Assembly (NCBI GenBank): GCA_000165345.1
Contig: CM000432.1
Span: forward strand, 736,001 to 800,000
Direction: 5' to 3'
DNA length: 64,000 bases
Of the stretch, positions 31,894-54,647 are shown piece by piece; the first letter of the stretch is position 1; the number at the start of each line of letters is the position of its first letter. The notes beneath the pieces were generated by a model, which saw only the letters and a list, made by a program, of their open reading frames with translations, was not told the DNA's origin and searched no databases. The position numbers and the translations under genes were made by a program.

Positions 31894-33570
31894 TCATTCA
31901 GACTGCGTATATGATGCCTCTTGTTTATATTTAGAGTGATTATCAGCCACTTTGGGCTTGGAGGCAGTTATACATTGATTCTGAGAATATAAGTACGGAG
32001 GTAGAGGCGGAGGAACCTTCTTACCATTTCTATATCTTGGGCGGTTTCTATCATACTTCATATAGCATGCATTACAGCAAATTTGTTTTTCAACATATGT
32101 AGTGGGTGGAATATTACTTGATGGACTTGTTTCAGGTGTAGACGAGATCTGATCTGACTGAGTGTTGAACGCATGGTTAGATTCTTGTTTTAGAGATATC
32201 GAATGTTCATCTTTATTGCTTGAATATAGTTCTCCCAAATTAAGAAATCTCCACTGTGAAGTTTGAGTAGTTCCGCAAACAATACAAATAGCAGAGCTCT
32301 TGTCAATTTTTCTTCTTCCTCCAATATTTGATTTAATGGATTTTCTAGGCTTTTCAGCCTTTCTACTTTCTTGTCTGAGACCTATTTTAGATACCCAATC
32401 CCCTAGTGTGTTGGAGATCTCGAATCCTCCATCAAAATTATTGAGTGACTTTCTAGAATTTGAAGATTGTGATTTACTAATAGGCGAAAGAATTGAGGGA
32501 ATTGTCTGGGAAGAGTGAATTGGGGAGCTATTCACTGAAATACTACTGCTGCTCACTCCACCCGTAAAATTGACAGATGGTATATTTAATCGGCTTTCTG
32601 AGCCTCCAATAAAATTGGCTGTAGGAGTCAAATTAGCACCTACAGCCCCCCCATTACACGGAATTTGAGATAGCGATGCCAATGATACCATATTTGGAGC
32701 CTGAGATCCTCCATTTTGTAACTCAAATAGGTTAAAAGGCATAACTGTGGATCCAGTTCCAGATCCAGTTACAGTTACAGTTCCAGCCCCAGCCCCAGTC
32801 CCAGTCCCAGATCCAGATCCAGTTCCAGTTCCAATTCCAATTCCAATTCCAGTTCCAGATCCCGGCCTAGATCCCTGTCCAGTTAATGCATTATTATTAC
32901 CTTGCCAACCAAGATACATTTGTCTAAGTAATGGATTAAAACATCCTGCTGTTGTACCTGCTATTCCGTATCCACCAGCTAAAATTGGAGAATACATAGC
33001 CATGGCCATTTGATTGTATAATGCTAACTGTTGATAATAAGCATTCATAGTGTTATTCCACTCTATCTGAGATCCAGGATAAGGAAATAAGCTATTTGAC
33101 GAATCTACTTTCGATTTTAAACTCCCTTCATCTACACTGAATGAATTGAAACTATTCGAGTTATTACTCTGAGAGTTATTGACTAAGCTTGGAGGAAGCA
33201 GTTGAGCACCTGTTGCTGGGCTACATGAAGAAAATCCAGCTCCTAATCCTGTATTATTAGAAGTTGATCCTCCATTTGGGAAGTAACTATTTGAAGCCAT
33301 TTCTTTATTCTTCATCTCAGTAATTTTTGAAAATATTGAATAAAAGTTACTCAGGTTTGAATATGCGTCATCTCTTTCATTTACTATATTGCATCCTGGT
33401 GACGAATTCGCACTAATAAACATAGTAGGAGGACTATCAGGAACATTCTGAGATGCCAGCTTGCCAGTTGTTGAGTAGATAAGCATAGGATCTTGCGCCA
33501 AATCTGAAGCTTTGACATTACTCATCTCGGGAATTGCCTCTTTGGATATTAGATTTGTGCTGAATGACAT
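31894..33570 (-). CDS. Low-complexity nuclear protein with a divergent GATA-type zinc finger
   Basis: C-terminal CIVCGTTQTSQWRFLNLGEL ... (~50 aa Ser/Thr-rich insert) ... QICCNACYMKYDRNRP matches the two halves of a GATA finger (CxxCx4TxxWR ... CNACxxxxxxxRP). The N-terminal half is Asn/Ser/Gly-rich. Confidence 0.65.
   Translation of the reverse strand: MSFSTNLISKEAIPEMSNVKASDLAQDPMLIYSTTGKLASQNVPDSPPTMFISANSSPGCNIVNERDDAYSNLSNFYSIFSKITEMKNKEMASNSYFPNGGSTSNNTGLGAGFSSCSPATGAQLLPPSLVNNSQSNNSNSFNSFSVDEGSLKSKVDSSNSLFPYPGSQIEWNNTMNAYYQQLALYNQMAMAMYSPILAGGYGIAGTTAGCFNPLLRQMYLGWQGNNNALTGQGSRPGSGTGIGIGIGTGTGSGSGTGTGAGAGTVTVTGSGTGSTVMPFNLFELQNGGSQAPNMVSLASLSQIPCNGGAVGANLTPTANFIGGSESRLNIPSVNFTGGVSSSSISVNSSPIHSSQTIPSILSPISKSQSSNSRKSLNNFDGGFEISNTLGDWVSKIGLRQESRKAEKPRKSIKSNIGGRRKIDKSSAICIVCGTTQTSQWRFLNLGELYSSNKDEHSISLKQESNHAFNTQSDQISSTPETSPSSNIPPTTYVEKQICCNACYMKYDRNRPRYRNGKKVPPPLPPYLYSQNQCITASKPKVADNHSKYKQEASYTQSE
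32750..32885. repeat. Imperfect hexanucleotide microsatellite (CCAGWY)n, ~22 units, inside the GATA-like CDS
   Basis: ccagttccagatccagttacagttacagttccagccccagccccagtcccagtcccagatccagatccagttccagttccaattccaattccaattccagttccagatcc. On the coding (minus) strand it encodes a (Gly-Thr/Ser/Ile/Ala)n dipeptide repeat. Confidence 0.85.
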
Positions 33571-35860
33571 TTGGATTAATTCTTTTAAAGTTTTGAATAA
33601 CTAATATACTCTATTAAATAACTGATAGTTAATTGGCCAAAGCCAAATTATTTTTATTAATTTCTGATATGCACTGCTTTATTTTATATATTCCTTAGTT
33701 TCCCCGTCTAATTATCAGTGCATTTTACTTTCATTCGTGACCTTTCTTTTTTTTTGTTGCTACTGACTGAAAAAGAAGCCCTTAGAAACAACTTCCTCAC
33801 TCCAACCAGATACCAGAAATCTGCTCAACTCACCTTATCAATTTGCTAAAACCTTGACTCACTTTTTCGATACTTTTTTTCTATTCTGTTACCTTGATCT
33901 TTATAACTTTTGCATCACAAAGATTTAATTATAGTACTTAACCACTTTATACTCACTAAAGCCTTGAATTTTACCTCTTCATATAATGATATATTTGCAG
34001 GCTAATTATCATTACAATCTCCCTTGATAATCTTTTTCTACTTTTTTCTAATGATCTGTAATCTAAAATTATACCGTTACTTGCAATTAATGATTTTAAC
34101 GTCTTGCCTCTTGTCGAGAAGCTAAGGCGCCAACACTGCTCGATATGATGTTTGTATGGGATTTCGCGATGGGTAAAAAATTATACAATTTTTTTTTAGT
34201 TAATTTTCCTCTAAAAAGTACATTTTAGAGCCGATTATAGTGGATTATGATAGCTTTAGTTTCTAGTTCTTGCATTTTCTTCATAAAGAATTCATTTTTT
34301 TTTTTAAGATATTAATTATAAGCATACAAGTTATTAAAGACAACTCGACAATATTTTTTTGTGACTTATTAGTAAACTTATAAATAGTTAATCCTATTTC
34401 GGATTTGGTCTTTTATAATGAATTACTCCATCTTACTAATGATAATTATTATTCGCATGCATTATATGTGTGAGCCAATCATTTAAATCATTAACCAAAG
34501 ACTATAGTAAAAGTGACTTAAAAAAAATTAGGAATATTTTTGGTGCTTACAGCTATACATGATCTTTTGTTTATCTGTTGTTCTTTACATTATTAAATCA
34601 TCTTCAAGCCTGCTCAAAATTATAAAATTTGATTAATAGTAAATACTACAGAATATGTATAGAAGCTCAGTTGGATACGCATACAAACGAGTTATGTGCA
34701 TTATTTAGAAAATAAATAAAAGTTACTTTATTAATGTGTAGAGTAGAATAAACCGAGAGAAAAAAAACTTTTAGTTTAAAATTAACCTTTCAAATTATTA
34801 AACTATTAACATCAAAACTTTCCTCCTACTGATAGTTTGGTCTACTATTCTTTTCTACTCTTATTTCTTCCCACCATGAAGGCTGTGCAACTTCAACCGG
34901 AGGATCCTAAAATTTTTTTATTCATTAGTAATAGATCCTTGAATATCAACTACCCAACTATTTTGGAAGTTCTACTTAACTTACCCTACAACAACCGAGT
35001 ATCTTAAATAAAAACAAAGGATCAAAGTTCATTCTCTTCAAGCTGTTTTACTGCAATTAATTCACTTGTTGAACTCTGTGGGGTTCTCACAATGTTTGAT
35101 TAATTTTCAGAGGTAAATTGATTTGGCGGCACGTCCAAAGTAAGTTTAGTTTTTTTTTAGTACCTATTTTAACGTAGAATTGATAATGCAACAATTATTA
35201 AAAATTACGTATTGAACTTAATAGAAAGTTTTGATAACGAAATACTGAAATGGTAACAGAAACTTTAAATAACGAGTCAAAACATGCAAATAGATCTTAG
35301 TAGAATTCTAGAAATAAGTGAAAAACCTAAACTTTAGATTAAAGGTAGTATTATGTATTCCGGGAATACATAATAAATAAAAGGTCATCCATCCTCTCTT
35401 TTCCCTTCCTGCAATATCTCTTGCCAAATTTTCCTTGTATCTTAAGAATTGCCTTTCCCGTAAATTAGAAATCCTTTTTTGATTTTTTCATTATACTTTT
35501 CATTCTTAAGTTGAAAAAAATAATATAATAGTAATAATACCTTCCTTATAAGATGGTGAGAAAAATTTTATCGTTTCTTAATATAATTACAATAGAATAG
35601 TAATAACAGCACCACTATAGTGAGATCAATATTGCATTTGTGCATACAATGTAAATTCAGATATTCTTATCTTGCGAATATTAAGCACTACTTCGACAGC
35701 TTGGTCTCTTTCTATCCCTTCTATTTTTCCTCTCTACTCATTAAAATGAGATTAGTAAACATTCTAATATAAACAAAGAAAGTCAAAAGCATCGTGTAAT
35801 AAAGATTCTCTACTATTCATGAGGTTTAATAATTGAGGCAAGGAATCTCATTGTAATGCT

Positions 35861-37408
35861 TTATTGTTCCAAACTTTCAGAATTTACCTCTTCCTTTGGA
35901 TTCTCACTTGCATTGCAGCACATTGAAGTTATTGAGAAACCATCGTGATGCGATGCTTCAATAGCCTCAGGCTTTATTGGAATAATATCCTTCGGCATGC
36001 TTAGAGGAGCAGCGCCTAAGACTGCCATTGGAATACATTGTTGAACTGGATAAGTGACAATAGGTGTTTGATCCATTGGACCTAATGTGTCAACATTGAC
36101 GACTTCTTTAGATTCAAGTCCTCTAATTAGATTCTGAGCTCCAGAAGGAAGTGAATCAATATCAACAACTCCAGCAGCAGCTTCACATCCACATAATGAG
36201 ATCTGGTGTGGTGCTAAGTTAACCTGCTGAGGTGCACCGGTTACCAAATTATATACAGCCTGTTGTTGTAACATAAAGAATTCTTGAGTATACATTTCTT
36301 GAGTTTGAATAGTAGGTGTAAGAATCCATTGGTTTTGTAAATATGTCATCATTAATGGATTTCCTGGAGACATTGGTAAAGGATCCCACAATTGTCTTTG
36401 CAAGTTCATTTGTCTCTCGAAGCTCTGCATACGTTCTAGGCTTGGTTCCTGGTTGGAGTCAATACCATCCATTGCCTCACGGTATGGTGTAATCATCCTA
36501 TCAATTTCCATCTCGCCAACTAAAACTCTTCTTTCTTCTAATAAATCTGCATTAACCCTCATCCACATTGCATGGAAGTCAGCCTGTGATAATTCTGCGG
36601 GATTCATCAAGTGAACATCCATCTCTCTCTCTCTCTTTCCAAATTCAACATCAACAGGTACTGGTTTGATAATATCTTCATACACAAAATAGGGAACTTC
36701 TCTTACACATTCCACCTCGTATACTTCCTCAGTCATCTTAAACTTTGGAACTACTCGCTTTCTTACTGGAATTGGAACAAAATGATCACGGAATTCCAAA
36801 ACTGGAACATGGACTGGAACAACAAAGGGCTTTGGGACCATGTATGGCACGGGAAGCTCAATCAAAGATGGAACAGCGTCTCCTACTGCAACTCTTGTGA
36901 TGCTAACAACAGTGTTTTCATCGATCTCAATAGGGTTTGGTGGGAAAATTGGGAGTGATTCAGGGGCGTTAATAAAAGGTTTTTCTGGTTCCTCTACATA
37001 TGTCACCTTTTCTACAATCTTCTCAACTGTTTTATACTCGACAACAGGTTTGGTTACAACCTTCTCAACAATCTCCTCTTTTGGAACGTATTTAACGTTA
37101 TACCTCACAACGGGATCCTCGATAATTTTTTCCACTGTCTTAATTACTGGAACCTCCACAACTTTCTCTCTATATTCAGGAACTATACGTGGAACTGTTC
37201 TCACTACTTCCTTAACTTCAACATCTGGTACTACAGTTTCTACCAACTTAACTAAAGGTATTCCTCCCTCAGCTACGCCACTTGTCGAGCTTTCTTCCGG
37301 GATTTGGAGCGATGGAACCACATATCGCTGCTCCTGAACTTCATCTTCAGCAAAGCGAGCATGGTGCTCACGTCCCGAGGTCTGACCTGAACGCTCACTA
37401 TTACTCAT
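35861..37408 (-). CDS. Alveolin-domain inner membrane complex (IMC) protein
   Basis: Iterated EKVVEVP / EKIVEKV / VPV repeats (EKVVEVPVIKTVEKIIEDPVVRYNVKYVPKEEIVEKVVTKPVVEYKTVEKIVEKV...) and C-terminal paired cysteines (LCGCE, MCCN), as in palmitoylated IMC proteins. Confidence 0.82.
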   Translation of the reverse strand: MSNSERSGQTSGREHHARFAEDEVQEQRYVVPSLQIPEESSTSGVAEGGIPLVKLVETVVPDVEVKEVVRTVPRIVPEYREKVVEVPVIKTVEKIIEDPVVRYNVKYVPKEEIVEKVVTKPVVEYKTVEKIVEKVTYVEEPEKPFINAPESLPIFPPNPIEIDENTVVSITRVAVGDAVPSLIELPVPYMVPKPFVVPVHVPVLEFRDHFVPIPVRKRVVPKFKMTEEVYEVECVREVPYFVYEDIIKPVPVDVEFGKREREMDVHLMNPAELSQADFHAMWMRVNADLLEERRVLVGEMEIDRMITPYREAMDGIDSNQEPSLERMQSFERQMNLQRQLWDPLPMSPGNPLMMTYLQNQWILTPTIQTQEMYTQEFFMLQQQAVYNLVTGAPQQVNLAPHQISLCGCEAAAGVVDIDSLPSGAQNLIRGLESKEVVNVDTLGPMDQTPIVTYPVQQCIPMAVLGAAPLSMPKDIIPIKPEAIEASHHDGFSITSMCCNASENPKEEVNSESLEQ

Positions 37409-38042
37409 CTTAATTCTATTTTTCCCTTGTCCTCTTATATCTCTTATTCTCTCCTGCTATTTTTTTAATACATGTATTAGACATAGACATAATGAATTTC
37501 CATATAGCACACAAACTCTACGTCATGCTTTATTAAATTTTTGATCCCAATTATCTCACAATTAAATAAAGAGCACTTTACCGCCATGTCTTGTATATGA
37601 TCTTTAAAATTATTTCGGAAATAGCTAAAATTGTTATTGGAGTTTAATAATAAACACTTGTTACCTGATTCATTAGTTATTCTTAGAATTGTTGTGTCAA
37701 ATGTAATGTTTAGTATTTTCTTTATCCTTCTGAATTTTTTTTTCCTATTATTGCAACTTTGATTCCCTGTTTCTAGACAACATTATGACAGAGGATTATA
37801 CAAGAATAGCATAATTCGAAATTCTAAAAATATAGATATTCTTTCAGCGAGATAAATCTGCAAATCCTATACGAGAGTGCCATCAGTTATGGCCACTTCC
37901 TCTTGCTTCTAAACCTAACGTTTCTTAATCATGCACCTGTAACATAGAGCTAAAAACGTATCAAAGAGCTATATTATTAATAATATTAACTATTCAATTC
38001 AATATTAACAACACTCAAACGGAGAATCAAATTTTCTCTATT

Positions 38043-38088
38043 GCATGCAAGAGTTGTCCATGCAAAAATGTTGCATGTGGGATGGCGC
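38043..38088. promoter_or_regulatory. Cluster of three (T)GCATG(C) motifs plus GGCGC within 46 bp in the divergent alveolin promoter
   Basis: ttGCATGCaagagttgtcCATGCAaaaatgttGCATGTgggatGGCGCt. Similar GCATGC clusters lie at 45158-45189 (acatgcattcatacttgcatgcatgcacac) and 54231-54249 (gcatgcatgcattgcatcc). Confidence 0.5.
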
Positions 38089-38610
38089 TATTTTAAATAA
38101 TCTGCCTGCTTTAATGATATATTAAACATTTAGAAATAAATAAGAAGGAGAATTATTGTGTTAGGAATTAATTCATTTCTCAAACTAATAGCTGTAATAA
38201 TCTAACAATAACTTTTTTTACACTCAATGTTGCACTTTATTTTGATCCATCACTTATATTTCAATAATTATTGAAAAATATAAATTTACTTTGTTGTAGA
38301 CGAGACGTGAAGAACTGTGATAGCATGTGCGTACGTATATATTATAAAGTAATATATGATGTATGATAATGTAAGTAATATTATATATATAATCAATTGA
38401 ATAGTATAATAAATGCGATAATCTGATTAATAGAAAATCAGAAAATATTAGCGGTATTTGAGTAGGAGAAAAGCAAAACAATAAGTTTTAAGGCTTGAAT
38501 TAAAGATCGTGTGCGAAGAAAAAAATAATTAGGGGGAAAATTCCAACTTTATATTGAATTAGGTAATTATTATATATTTAGAAAATAATAATTGATAATA
38601 GAAATTAAAG

Positions 38611-39405
38611 ATGCCAGCAAAGAAGAATAATGGTGGACAAACCGATAGAGATTCAGAATCAGGATTAACTGATCGTCAATCTAATAAAGTTGAAAGTAAC
38701 ATAGTTGAAGTGCCAGAATTGCATTTCCATGAAAAATATTCAGCTGTGAATATCCCTGTGGTACAGGAGAAGATTAGATATGAAACAAAGGAGGTGATTC
38801 AAGAAAGAGAGGTACATGTAGTGAAGCCAGTCGTTAAGGAGAAAATTGTTGAAGTTCCAAAATATAAAGTTGTTGAGAAAGTTGTTGAAGTTCCCCAAGT
38901 TGTTGTGCAGGAAAAGCTGATCGAGGTTGAGAGAGTGGAGGTCACTTCAAGAAGCAGAAATCAATCAAGACCAATAAGTCCGGTGGAAAAGAAACAATTA
39001 GATATTGTTACGCAATATCGTCAAGTCCCAAAGCCAGTAGAAGTTCCTATTGCATTTTACTCTGCTATTCCTGTTCCTATTTTGATAGATAGAGCAGTTC
39101 CTGTTCCAATGGAATTGCAAATTATTCAAGATATATTATGTCCAAAGATTGAGGCGATCTATAAAGACATTCCAATTCCAATTCCAGTTAAGAGAACAAT
39201 TGAAAAACCTGTGCCAATTGGTCTATATGATCAGCCAGAACTTCTCCAAAAATACCTTCACGACCCTAATGAGCCATTACCAAATCCAGTCGCAGCTTTA
39301 GAGCAAATGGCTCAACAAGCATCCATGGCTGCTGCATTAAACCAACAAAATATGATGCAAATGATGCAACAGCAGGGCAGTGTACAACAAGAGCCTCAAG
39401 AGTAA
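38611..39405 (+). CDS. Alveolin-domain inner membrane complex (IMC) protein
   Basis: VKPVVKEKIVEVPKYKVVEKVVEVPQVVVQEKLIEVERVEV is a canonical EKIVEVP-type alveolin repeat, followed by a Pro/Val-rich region and a Gln/Met-rich C-terminus. Confidence 0.82.
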   Translation: MPAKKNNGGQTDRDSESGLTDRQSNKVESNIVEVPELHFHEKYSAVNIPVVQEKIRYETKEVIQEREVHVVKPVVKEKIVEVPKYKVVEKVVEVPQVVVQEKLIEVERVEVTSRSRNQSRPISPVEKKQLDIVTQYRQVPKPVEVPIAFYSAIPVPILIDRAVPVPMELQIIQDILCPKIEAIYKDIPIPIPVKRTIEKPVPIGLYDQPELLQKYLHDPNEPLPNPVAALEQMAQQASMAAALNQQNMMQMMQQQGSVQQEPQE

Positions 39406-39566: not shown

Positions 39567-41498
39567 TTAATCTTTAGAAAAGTACTTGATGAGTAGATCC
39601 TTGATAAATCCCATAATATCTTTTGCTCTTTCTAATGTTGGTGATTCTACATATACCCTTGCAACTTCCTCAGTGCCTGATGGTCTTATAAATGCTCTGG
39701 AGTAATTATCGTTCAAATTTGAGATATAATTATCAATGCTTTCCTGTATTGCTTTTGGTTCAACTAGAAATTTTTCTGTTTCTTTATCACATATTAGAGT
39801 CTCGAGGTCGCATCTATTTAAATAGACTTTATCTTGAATGACATTAAGATCGTCATAAAGGCGCATAGAAAATTTGCAGCCAAATCTGGTTTGTATAAAT
39901 TTTCTTGCAACTTCAAATGCAAGCATATCAGAGATTGCATCTCCAATTACAGGATTAAACAAGTTCAGGAAATAAGTTAATAATCTGCATGAATTATTAT
40001 TTATCCCAAATTTTGACATCTCTTCAACCCATGATTTTAACTTGTCTTCTTTGTGAATTACAGTTCCATGGCCATTTGCCTCGAAATATACTGCAATGTC
40101 ATATTCTTCTGCTTTTCTGTGGAGATGCTTAACTCCAGTTGGGACACAGTTAATAGAAAATCTGAAATATTTTGGATTTAATGCACTAAGTAAATCATTT
40201 AGATACTTGGTACTAGCTCCATTAGCATATGCTGTTTGGATTACACCTAAACACAAAGTGGGAATTGTGTCTGTTTCAACTGTTATCTCTCTTATGGATT
40301 GACTTAATAGGGTAGCAACCACAAGAACATAGCATGCTGAAATTCTATCTCCATCAATCAAAAAAATTTCAGAATTATCATTTTTATGAAAATGATTAGG
40401 TACAAAGTATATCAATCTGTCAGCATCCCCATCAAAAGCCGCAACATAGTCAACTTTATCTGAATCATAATCTTGGTAAGAATAGAACCCAACAGGAGGG
40501 AGGGTATTTTTTTGAATATGTTCTGCTCCGCAGCCATCATTAAGTTTTTCAGGATTATCGCAGTTAATCATTTTTAGACTCAAACCAGCATAAGATAGTA
40601 TCTTTGAAACCCTATCAGCGTGGTATTTTCCCACGCCATTCGCCACATCTACCAACAAGATCCCATTTTCATTTATCTTGTAATTTTCAATTTTGTTGGG
40701 TTTTGCCTTAAAAAAAAGATGGCTATTTTGAGTAAAAAGGAATGAGTGATCATCATTTTGTATCAAATTCACTAACTGTTTAAAGTAATATTCATGATAG
40801 GCAAAGTAAACCTCAAAGAACGATGAGACCATTTCACTCTTATTTTGGTTGCTACATTTCTCCAAGTCTTTAATAAGATTTTCGAACATTACAGTTTTTT
40901 TAATATCAATTGGAACTCTGTCGATGATCAATCCATTTGCAAATGCTACCATGAAATGCAACTGCGGAGTAGTCGTAAATCCAAAGTTTAAAAATCTCGA
41001 GATTCCGAATTCTGATATAAATCTCTCAATAGACTCTAGAATATATTTTGATGATGGTCTGGTATCGAAACCTACTATTAGTTTTGCTTTTGAAAGCTCT
41101 ATTTTGTTTAGCTCATCATCGCCTAATGCCAACTTCTCCTTGAAATAATGCATCAATACTCTCACTGGATTGCTCGCATCCTCATGGTTTACAGCATTAA
41201 AGCAAATTTGCTCAAAATCTTTGTTCAGCATACTTCCTGTAACATCCACAATCTTCACTCCATTATCTTGAATTGGGTTATGCGATGCTGTTATTACAAC
41301 CCCGACCCACTTTTGTTCCAGAATACTTCTTAGGCAAGCAATTATTGTGCAAATCATAGCCACTTGTTCTACTCTATGTGGATTCTCCTCATAATTCATT
41401 CTGAATCCAGCTGTTCCATATATTAATGGCCTTAAACTTTGTAACTTTCCACATTTTTCTATTAGAACTTTTGTCACTCTTTCTTCAAATTCGCTCAT
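39567..41498 (-). CDS. Phosphoacetylglucosamine mutase (AGM1/PGM3 family alpha-D-phosphohexomutase)
   Basis: N-terminal GTAGFR plus the active-site ITASHNP phosphoserine loop, and the four-domain phosphohexomutase length (643 aa). Confidence 0.88.
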   Translation of the reverse strand: MSEFEERVTKVLIEKCGKLQSLRPLIYGTAGFRMNYEENPHRVEQVAMICTIIACLRSILEQKWVGVVITASHNPIQDNGVKIVDVTGSMLNKDFEQICFNAVNHEDASNPVRVLMHYFKEKLALGDDELNKIELSKAKLIVGFDTRPSSKYILESIERFISEFGISRFLNFGFTTTPQLHFMVAFANGLIIDRVPIDIKKTVMFENLIKDLEKCSNQNKSEMVSSFFEVYFAYHEYYFKQLVNLIQNDDHSFLFTQNSHLFFKAKPNKIENYKINENGILLVDVANGVGKYHADRVSKILSYAGLSLKMINCDNPEKLNDGCGAEHIQKNTLPPVGFYSYQDYDSDKVDYVAAFDGDADRLIYFVPNHFHKNDNSEIFLIDGDRISACYVLVVATLLSQSIREITVETDTIPTLCLGVIQTAYANGASTKYLNDLLSALNPKYFRFSINCVPTGVKHLHRKAEEYDIAVYFEANGHGTVIHKEDKLKSWVEEMSKFGINNNSCRLLTYFLNLFNPVIGDAISDMLAFEVARKFIQTRFGCKFSMRLYDDLNVIQDKVYLNRCDLETLICDKETEKFLVEPKAIQESIDNYISNLNDNYSRAFIRPSGTEEVARVYVESPTLERAKDIMGFIKDLLIKYFSKD

Positions 41499-44592: not shown

Positions 44593-45534
44593 GCTTTCCT
44601 AGTAAAGTAATAATTCCAATATTACCATAAAAAAAAGATTATTAAAGTTTTATATACTCTCGTTAGTTCACTTGATAATCCCGCAGCTATCAGCCATGTG
44701 CTTATTCAATGAGGCTACCAGAACATAAAACCGCAAGAAGTCTAACTCTCCACTTACAAATCTATAGCTACGATTCTTATATTAAACTTTTAATACACTT
44801 TTTCCTATTTTAAATTCAGACTTGTCAGCCTTTACAATTTTTATATACAAAAGGGCGCTCCAACTCAGAGAGTAGTAATATTACAAAATTCCTATAAACT
44901 TATGGCGCCAAAATTTTATTATTTTTTTACAATTCACATTAGGCAATTCAATGCAAAATTCAGGTCTTTGAGAGACAAAGGGAAAATCATATTTCATAAT
45001 TTGTCAATCCTATAATTGTCATTTTGAATAATTGTTCTGAATAGAAAAGGCAATAAAACTTCTCATAGTTATGTCCGCCTTTTTGATATTAAATTTGTTT
45101 TTTGATGTTTAAGAAAGATTTTCGAATAGAATTGAAAAATTATTGAGCTCCTAAAATACATGCATTCATACTTGCATGCATGCACACACAATATTTAGTA
45201 TCTAGCTCCTTATTTAGATTTTTGATGAAAATGAGATTACAAGTTTTGAATCAATAGGACACAAGCTTAATATGAACTTACTCTTTAAGTTAAGGAGCCA
45301 AGAATTAAGAATGTTCGAAGGTATTACATAATATTTTTATAAATTTCAAATTCTCTCTTCTTTCCCTTCTTCATTCCGCAATACTCTAAGAATTGATTAA
45401 TAAGTAGATATTGATATTCCAATCGTATTTAAAGAAATAACAAATACTTATACTTTTGCTAAAAGCGCCTATAATCTAAACGTTTTTTTTACAAACAAAC
45501 AAGAAAGATCATTTAGAGGTAAACTGGTAAATTC

Positions 45535-53905: not shown

Positions 53906-54647
53906 TTTTGTTTGCAAATCGACTATTATTCAATGGCTAAACAATGTTTCTTCATAATAATTATTTTAAAAAGAGTTAATTTCTATTTAATATCAGCTTC
54001 AGTCATTTCAACCAGTTATTAATATTTTAATTTATATATAAATATATATATAAATATATATTTATATTTGCATTCTTAAATATCCTTGTTTAGTTCATTT
54101 TTAAATTTATTAATTTTTTTTTTCTTTATAAAATTTCCCTTAAAATTCAATTTCTCTAAATCTCATACCTTTTGTTTACCTGTGATATAATTCCGTATTA
54201 TATACAATTTATTACTCCGCATGTACTAATGCATGCATGCATTGCATCCACATTATAAACTTGCAAATAAAAATTTGTTAATAGACAGTGGGGGTGATAG
54301 AGATATAATTAAATGAAAGTAAAGAATGTAAAAATAAGGTTTACTAGATTTTTATATTTTATGTACTATTTTGCTTAATTTAAGGTAACTCTTCATTCTG
54401 ATAGAAAAGCTTGAGAAATTTTTTTTCAAGGTTAAAAATTTTAATAAAAAGCAAAATAAATAATTGATGGCGCCACGATGTCTGTCAGCGAGCTACCTTT
54501 ACAGGGAAATATTTGGTTTGACATTTCCTTAAAAAAATTAACAAAGTGGCGGAAATTGACTGGTTTAACTTTTTTACATTTTTGGATCATTTGCCAAAAA
54601 AAAATAGAATACTAAGATATTTGAAGTTAGAAGTATTAAGAGAAAAA

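Follow-up and report, generated by a model that had tools for sequence, protein, structure and literature searches.

The window analysed here is a stretch of 64,000 nucleotides from chromosome 4 of Cryptosporidium parvum, with about 33% G+C and long open reading frames (ORFs) without introns. Our subject is a pair of genes within it, cgd4_3290 and cgd4_3300, and the spacer that separates them. Both genes encode alveolins, structural proteins of the network beneath the inner membrane complex (IMC). An earlier reading of the DNA letters (the original prediction) had placed two ORFs head-to-head across a 1.2-kb spacer, called both products alveolins for their EKIVEVP/EKVVEVP repeats and proposed that the genes are co-regulated. 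The ORFs were found at the same coordinates, with 1,202 bp from ATG to ATG and no gene in between. Their products are identical to proteins of C. parvum Iowa II, and both genes and their adjacency are already annotated in this species. The identifiers of the pair and of the neighbouring genes cgd4_3280 and cgd4_3310 were tied to the ORFs by mapping published primers for quantitative PCR (qPCR). The reverse primer of cgd4_3290 maps to 36637-36658 and the forward primer of cgd4_3300 to 38919-38940. The IMCp domain (Pfam PF12314, gathering score 21.1 bits) scores 51.4 bits in cgd4_3290 and 32.5 bits in cgd4_3300, and the repeats are seen in each protein.

35861..37408, minus strand: cgd4_3290, IMC1/IMC1a-type alveolin by similarity, 515 amino acids (aa), EAK87794.1, CPATCC_001712 (ORF, Pfam, exact protein match)
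38611..39405, plus strand: cgd4_3300, IMC4/IMC1e-type alveolin by similarity and position, 264 aa, EAK87793.1, CPATCC_001711 (ORF, Pfam, exact protein match)
37004..37219, minus strand: IMCp alveolin repeat domain of cgd4_3290, residues 64-135, with EKVVEVP at residue 81 (Pfam, motif search)
38788..39006, plus strand: IMCp alveolin repeat domain of cgd4_3300, residues 60-132, with EKIVEVP at residue 77 and EKVVEVP at residue 89 (Pfam, motif search)
36182..36196, minus strand: LCGCE cysteine pair of cgd4_3290, residues 405-409, found only within Cryptosporidium (alignment)
35915..35920, minus strand: C-terminal CC of cgd4_3290, residues 497-498, inside MCCN (496-499 of 515; alignment)

The spacer contains six GCATG-type sites. 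Three of them lie within 36 bp near its middle and are followed by GGCGC, and each element of the tight cluster that had been pointed out at 38043-38088 (three TGCATG motifs plus GGCGC) reads at its place.

37409..38610, no strand: divergent intergenic region of 1,202 bp with GCATG-type sites at 37524, 37930, 38043, 38059, 38073 and 38323 (sequence read)
38042..38049, no strand: palindromic TGCATGCA, a full AP2_1 site (consensus BGCATGCAH from PMC3734150)
38059..38064, minus strand: middle TGCATG site (CATGCA on the plus strand), in C. parvum/hominis and the chipmunk genotype only
38072-38077, plus strand: third TGCATG site
38084-38088, plus strand: GGCGC
38070..38091, plus strand: composite element GTTGCATGTGGGATGGCGCTAT, combining TGCATG (AP2_1), TGTGGG (G-box-like) and GGCGC (E2F-like) (footprint scan)
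37460..37605, minus strand: cgd4_3290-proximal block of about 150 bp, 50-200 bp upstream of the ATG, non-coding by frame analysis (alignment, footprint scan)
38297..38347, plus strand: cgd4_3300-proximal block TAGACGAGACGTGAAGAACTGTGATAGCATGTGCGTACGTATATATTATAA / TAGACGAGACGTGAAGAACTGTGATAGCATGTGCGTACGTATATA, 265-315 bp upstream of the ATG, with GCATG at 38323-38327 (alignment, footprint scan)
38481..38505, plus strand: conserved block, presumed 5' leader of cgd4_3300 (footprint scan)

The number of sites and their spacing exceed what base composition provides. In 5,000 dinucleotide-preserving shuffles of the spacer, the mean number of GCATG-type sites was 1.25 (P~0.001), and 0.2% of the shuffles had one or more triples within 50 bp (P~0.002). 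The non-coding DNA of the whole window holds 4 such triples against 0.034 expected, a count that none of 500 shuffles reached. The enrichment is genome-typical and not peculiar to the alveolin locus, because TGCATG is about two-fold over-represented across the window (61 occurrences against 30 expected) and further triple clusters occur at 1687, 26489, 45159 and 54219. The motif is not specific to IMC genes. It is the general, known AP2_1 element, over-represented upstream of 33 of 200 (motif 1) to 55 of 200 (whole family) C. parvum expression clusters (PMC3734150). A chance or compositional origin of the cluster, without any function, could draw on this two-fold excess of GCATG-type words in the genome. 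We find such an origin barely credible in view of the shuffling results and of the position of the cluster, which is conserved between species while its flanks have diverged.

Some of the other clusters deserve a mention of their own. Clusters of GCATG/TGCATGCATG are located at 45159-45184, about 570 bp upstream of a NOC3p-like gene, and at 54219-54241, about 640 bp upstream of an RBBP4/CAF1C-like gene. These distances resemble that of the alveolin module and hint that such modules are placed by a common rule in C. parvum. The overlapping TGCATG/GCATGC sites at 26489-26519 fall inside an ORF on the minus strand (25318-27231) that encodes a TRM1-like tRNA methyltransferase, near residue 240. 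The Pfam match of this ORF is split in two stretches around the same residue; the cluster might be the trace of an intron, of an internal promoter or of a gene model joined in error.

The alveolin pair and the neighbouring phosphoacetylglucosamine mutase gene are collinear in the chipmunk genotype, C. canis, C. felis, C. bovis and C. andersoni, with spacers of 1,126-1,462 bp. We aligned seven Cryptosporidium spacers with MAFFT and scanned them for footprints (at least 18 of 20 positions identical). The spacer is mostly diverged, with few conserved islands. One of them is GTTGCATGTGGGATGGCGCTAT, which passes the scan among C. parvum, the chipmunk genotype and C. canis within diverged surroundings. 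C. parvum/hominis and the chipmunk genotype share it letter for letter, and 18 nt at its core, TGCATGTGGGATGGCGCT, are unchanged in C. canis. For the more distant species, in which MAFFT had not aligned the central module fully, the module was read directly from the sequences. The palindrome TGCATGCA of 38042-38049 recurs at the equivalent position in C. canis and C. felis, and TGCATG is kept there in the chipmunk genotype and C. bovis. The C. felis module consists of TGCATGCA, 16 nt, a second TGCATGCA and then GTTGCCGCCA; that of C. bovis consists of TGCATGT, 25 nt and then GTTGCATGTAGGG. Two or three TGCAT-core sites, 24-32 bp apart, are located at about mid-spacer in all intestinal species compared (the chipmunk genotype, C. 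canis, C. felis and C. bovis); the pair of C. andersoni is weaker, with TGCAT cores at a distance of 43 bp. All six Cryptosporidium species compared have a mid-spacer TGCAT module, paired or triple, so the predicted cluster has its counterpart in the orthologous intergenic regions. The middle TGCATG site is specific to the C. parvum clade. Compared by eye, C. parvum GATGGCGCTA matches the E2F-like consensus (DTTGSCGCCH / TTTGGCGGGAAV) at 8 of 10 positions, and GTTGCCGCCA at the equivalent place in C. felis matches it at 10 of 10. C. bovis and C. andersoni lack this site.

Within the gene-proximal block at 37460-37605 are CATGC (37524-37528), TAGACATAGAC (37478-37488) and GCACAC (37507-37512), the last known from the literature as the AP2_2 core. 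Conservation covers most of the block in species up to C. bovis and part of it in C. andersoni. This block is the most conserved part of the spacer, with 13 invariant bases (ACATGT..TAGAC) in seven sequences including C. andersoni, and is far better conserved than a typical leader. Core promoter, 5' untranslated region structure and translational control are candidate roles for it. In C. parvum the block contains a 36-codon upstream ORF that is not conserved. A TAGAC-N-GAC repeat common to both proximal blocks was discarded as not significant (1 exact match in the window against 0.16 expected, equalled in 15 of 100 shuffles).

The central module stands about 530-660 bp from either ATG. We judge this far for a compact genome, and the spacer would accommodate a small transcript, so the module could belong to a small gene missing from the annotation, to a non-coding RNA, or to an element of the chromatin-boundary or origin type. 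Our searches argue against this. In 37300-38700, Rfam had no match with E<=1, no match in the whole window reached the gathering score, and the spacer contains no tRNA gene. Its ORFs are all short (the largest has 75 aa and a TTG start) and none is conserved, including an attractive upstream ORF. Furthermore, the module is made of known transcription factor motifs that are enriched upstream of the expression clusters of both genes. We regard an assignment of this kind as very improbable.

The expression of the pair was assessed with published data, the supplement of Mauzy et al. 2012, which contains quantitative reverse-transcription PCR results in four replicates at seven time points (2-72 h). 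The neighbouring genes on either side are included for comparison.

31894-33570, minus strand: cgd4_3280 (identifier via published qPCR primers)
39567-41498, minus strand: cgd4_3310, phosphoacetylglucosamine mutase, convergent neighbour of cgd4_3300 (primers, Pfam)

Both alveolin genes are silent at 2 and 6 h and peak at 12 h and 36 h. At 2, 6, 12, 24, 36, 48 and 72 h, transcript levels in percent of the maximum are 0, 0, 100, 6, 28, 3 and 1 for cgd4_3290 and 0, 0, 100, 6, 55, 8 and 3 for cgd4_3300. The two profiles correlate closely, with a Pearson r of 0.967 over the seven time points and a Spearman coefficient of 0.956 over the 28 paired samples, as expected from the proposed co-regulation. 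The convergent neighbour cgd4_3310 is uncorrelated with the pair (r=-0.1 to -0.3). The peaks at 12 h and 36 h would correspond to merozoite/zoite assembly, as we take these to be the times at which merozoites are assembled. Fuzzy clustering of expression profiles assigned the two genes to clusters 30 and 33 (Oberstaller et al. 2013). Cluster 30 is enriched in AP2_1 motif 1, E2F-like motif 4 and motif 18, and cluster 33 in AP2_1 motif 1, G-box motif 2, E2F-like motif 3 and motif 14 (Oberstaller et al. 2013).

Outside Cryptosporidium, the top matches of cgd4_3290 are IMC1 of the Eimeria/Toxoplasma group and IMC1a of Plasmodium. The region C-terminal to the repeats (PVPYMVPKP...FRD..VP.PVR; NP.EL.Q.D.HAMW.RVN; PL.MTYLQN.W) has invariant columns in Cryptosporidium, Eimeria, Neospora, Cardiosporidium and P. 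berghei. By these similarities, cgd4_3290 belongs to the IMC1/IMC1a orthologue group. The paired cysteines near the end of the protein had been described as typical of palmitoylated IMC proteins. LCGCE and MCCN are both present, and only the second has a wider distribution. MCCN aligns with KCCN of P. berghei and ACCG of Cardiosporidium, C497 is invariant in the IMC1/IMC1a proteins of Cryptosporidium, Eimeria, Neospora, Cardiosporidium and P. berghei, and the CC coincides with the terminal cysteine motif of Plasmodium IMC1a and of Cardiosporidium and coccidian IMC1. LCGCE, on the other hand, is confined to Cryptosporidium. The C-terminal CC of cgd4_3290 may be palmitoylated.

An N-terminal cysteine motif (M-x3-C ... 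CC) is present in the aligned IMC1-type proteins of Eimeria, Neospora, Cardiosporidium and Plasmodium and was not found in any of the four aligned from Cryptosporidium. This amounts to the loss, at the level of the genus, of one presumed membrane anchor. A hidden upstream exon was considered as a candidate: an ATG at 37587 on the minus strand opens a frame, MAVKCSLFNC..., that can be joined in frame through a GT..AG intron and would restore the motif. This exon is not conserved and was ruled out. The chipmunk genotype carries C5R, C. canis has an early stop, and C. felis and C. bovis have no ATG; the best-conserved bases would also land in the putative intron.

The small alveolin is named IMC4 in C. 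felis, and cgd4_3300 matches the IMC1-adjacent gene of Neospora, Eimeria, Plasmodium and Gregarina in tblastn searches. With the C. parvum protein as query, Plasmodium IMC1e is found at E 1e-35. Cardiosporidium IMC4 used as query finds the Cryptosporidium small alveolins at 131-137 bits and, among the Plasmodium proteins, IMC1e at 365-390 bits, far above IMC1g with about 100 bits. By tblastn, Cardiosporidium IMC4 and IMC1e are 58% identical over 331 aa. By similarity and by its position beside the IMC1 orthologue, cgd4_3300 is classed as an IMC4/IMC1e-type alveolin. A recent Toxoplasma paper names IMC1g as the Plasmodium orthologue of IMC4 (PMC13175489). Our comparison contradicts this statement: the Plasmodium counterpart looks like IMC1e, because of its higher similarity (365-390 against about 100 bits) and its syntenic place next to IMC1a.

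The arrangement of the pair extends well beyond the genus. IMC1-type and IMC4-type genes are head-to-head in six of six apicomplexan lineages tested, Cryptosporidium and the following five:

Neospora caninum: head-to-head pair, spacer 1.6 kb
Eimeria stiedai: head-to-head pair, spacer 0.74 kb
Cardiosporidium cionae: head-to-head pair, spacer 0.52 kb
Plasmodium berghei: head-to-head pair (IMC1a/IMC1e), spacer 2.4 kb
Gregarina niphandrodes: head-to-head pair, spacer about 0.8 kb

The genes flanking the pair are mutually unrelated in these five lineages. DeBarry and Kissinger found no synteny blocks of at least 3 genes between Plasmodium, Cryptosporidium and Toxoplasma (PMC3176833), and a retained two-gene unit therefore stands out. 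In Cystoisospora suis, the IMC1-type and IMC4-type proteins both derive from a contig of 71,201 bp, which is consistent with linkage in a seventh lineage. We tentatively suggest, as a possibility that we rate below even, that the pair is an ancestral apicomplexan co-expression unit. It would have stayed together from the common ancestor of Cryptosporidium, gregarines, coccidia, Nephromycida and Haemosporida onwards, the reason being that its products are direct partners in the subpellicular filament network and are needed at the same time. Plasmodium would then be a derived case, in which the IMC1a side has turned sporozoite-specific.

The layers of the spacer point to a mechanism. A conserved block with one GCATG lies close to each gene, and between the blocks is the central module with its two or three TGCAT-core (AP2_1) sites, the third of which is fused to the G-box-like TGTGGG and the E2F-like GGCGC. 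Stage-specific ApiAP2 factors would bind the central module and the proximal GCATGs and activate both core promoters in one time window. By convention, the transcription start sites of a bidirectional promoter are less than 1 kb apart; here, the spacer is a putative single shared promoter. TGCAT is bound in vitro by four C. parvum AP2 proteins, cgd2_3490, cgd1_3520, cgd8_3230 and cgd5_4250 (PMC4117751), as determined with isolated AP2 domains on protein-binding microarrays. Among these, cgd1_3520, which recognises the G-box as well as TGCAT and has its expression peak at 12 h (PMC4117751), is the best candidate binder. The Mauzy series shows a late peak for cgd2_3490, a low level at 12 h for cgd5_4250 and a broad profile for cgd8_3230. 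E2F/DP is a possible contributor.

On balance, we think it probable that this ancient divergent alveolin pair is switched on together by ApiAP2 factors at the central module and the proximal GCATGs. That the central module acts on both genes, and which factor binds it, we infer from its place, its conservation and the binding data. Several observations weigh against this interpretation, and most of them would suit its main rival, in which two independent promoters (37460-37605 on one side, 38297-38347 and 38481-38505 on the other) share trans-acting factors and the central module serves one gene or merely boosts. Each gene has its own conserved proximal block carrying GCATG, and these blocks could suffice for independent promoters that answer to the same factors. 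The transcript levels of the two alveolins differ about 200-370-fold, which one would not expect of a symmetric shared promoter, although part of the difference could come from primer efficiency. Downstream of cgd4_3290, on the far side of another 2.3-kb gap, is cgd4_3280, whose transcript has the 12 h/36 h profile too (r 0.96-0.995); co-expression therefore does not need the spacer studied here. Fuzzy clustering put the two genes in different, though similar, clusters. The Plasmodium pair is not co-expressed despite its identical arrangement, with IMC1a in sporozoites only and IMC1e in all three zoites (PMC4303705).

Other points concern the motif and its binders. Since GCATG clusters also precede the NOC3p-like and RBBP4-like genes, the motif alone cannot set the timing. 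Of the TGCATGCA binders, cgd2_3490 is characterised best, and its peak is at 48-72 h, not at 12 h. A GCATG cluster was not found in the spacers of the lineages outside Cryptosporidium: those of Neospora, Eimeria and P. berghei contain one site each, that of Cardiosporidium a single TGCATGCA, and that of Gregarina two GCATG sites beside the ATG.

Two results speak against independent promoters. The central module is among the few conserved islands of the spacer and sits near its middle in every species compared, and the head-to-head linkage has been kept in six lineages with entirely different flanks, which is easier to understand if the spacer cannot be split. We therefore consider independent promoters a somewhat unlikely, if serious, explanation, and retain joint activation through the central module and the proximal GCATGs as the preferred one.

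The surroundings of cgd4_3290 show further features. The stretch between cgd4_3280 and cgd4_3290 (33571-35860) comprises 2.3 kb without an ORF of at least 80 aa and without an Rfam match, and falls in the most AT-rich part of the window (29% G+C at 34001-36000). We consider this tandem intergenic gap unusually long for so compact a genome; the C. felis annotation has a 117-aa gene at the equivalent position. The gene cgd4_3280 itself encodes a "hypothetical protein" of 558 aa with a GATA-like finger (CIVCGTTQTSQWR ... CCNACYMKY) that is interrupted by an insert of about 47 residues. The natural sequence matches GATA as a half-finger only (E 0.012). With the insert deleted the match rises to 23.5 bits (E 4e-5), yet stays under the gathering score. 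This gene could encode a DNA-binding protein timed to merogony; alternatively, the insert could be an in-frame intron that the annotation has missed.

Public sources already contain the genes, their adjacency, the motif family and the expression series, and a shared promoter had been proposed before for the Plasmodium orthologues. New here are the anatomy of the spacer, the conservation of the module in the genus, the retention of the pair in six of six lineages with scrambled flanks, and the assignment of IMC4 to IMC1e. The finding is real, was correctly read in outline by the original prediction, and is ordinary in kind; none of it overturns current understanding. This locus has the merit of a short, clearly bounded spacer whose output is sharply timed to merogony, and the module at 38042-38091 could be dissected with existing transfection tools. 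Such a dissection would test how TGCAT-binding AP2 proteins, the G-box and E2F jointly give stage timing. The assignment of IMC4 prompts a re-examination of its counterpart in Plasmodium.

The pair can be set beside several known systems. Like the AP2_1 or AP2-Sp-type regulons, it has a perfect TGCATGCA (38042-38049), of a family that is enriched upstream of the clusters of both genes. At this locus the sites form a homotypic cluster fused to G-box-like and E2F-like motifs. In divergent histone pairs (H2A-H2B, H3-H4), partner structural proteins are likewise encoded head-to-head, their linkage has long been retained, and expression is limited to a building phase. The shared upstream elements of the histone pairs have been demonstrated by experiment and their output is near-equal, whereas the outputs of the alveolins differ by two orders of magnitude and promoter sharing is putative.

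The closest parallel in arrangement is Plasmodium imc1a/imc1e (PBANKA_040260/040270; PF3D7_0304000/0304100), the same orthologues in the same head-to-head orientation, for which Tremp et al. (2014) noted the arrangement and proposed shared promoter elements. Plasmodium IMC1a has the C-terminal CC(N) in common with cgd4_3290, and PfIMC1e has been described as a basal-complex alveolin. The Plasmodium spacer differs in its length of 2.4 kb and its one GCATG; in Cryptosporidium, IMC1 is without the N-terminal cysteine motif and the IMC4-type protein is about half as long.

Toxoplasma IMC1 (TgGT1_231640) and IMC4 represent the same two orthologue types, and in Neospora the IMC4-type gene is head-to-head with IMC1, 1.6 kb apart. 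The coccidian spacers differ from those of Cryptosporidium in having no GCATG cluster. Genomic adjacency of IMC1 and IMC4 is not mentioned in the recent Toxoplasma IMC1 and alveolin papers that we searched. TgIMC1 and TgIMC4 bind directly, co-localise and load onto daughter buds simultaneously (PMC13175489). By analogy, this binding and simultaneous loading would give a rationale for coupled expression and matches the co-expression in Cryptosporidium. The binding in Toxoplasma and the pairing of the IMC1 and IMC4 genes in six lineages together suggest that the subpellicular network has a conserved core heteromer.

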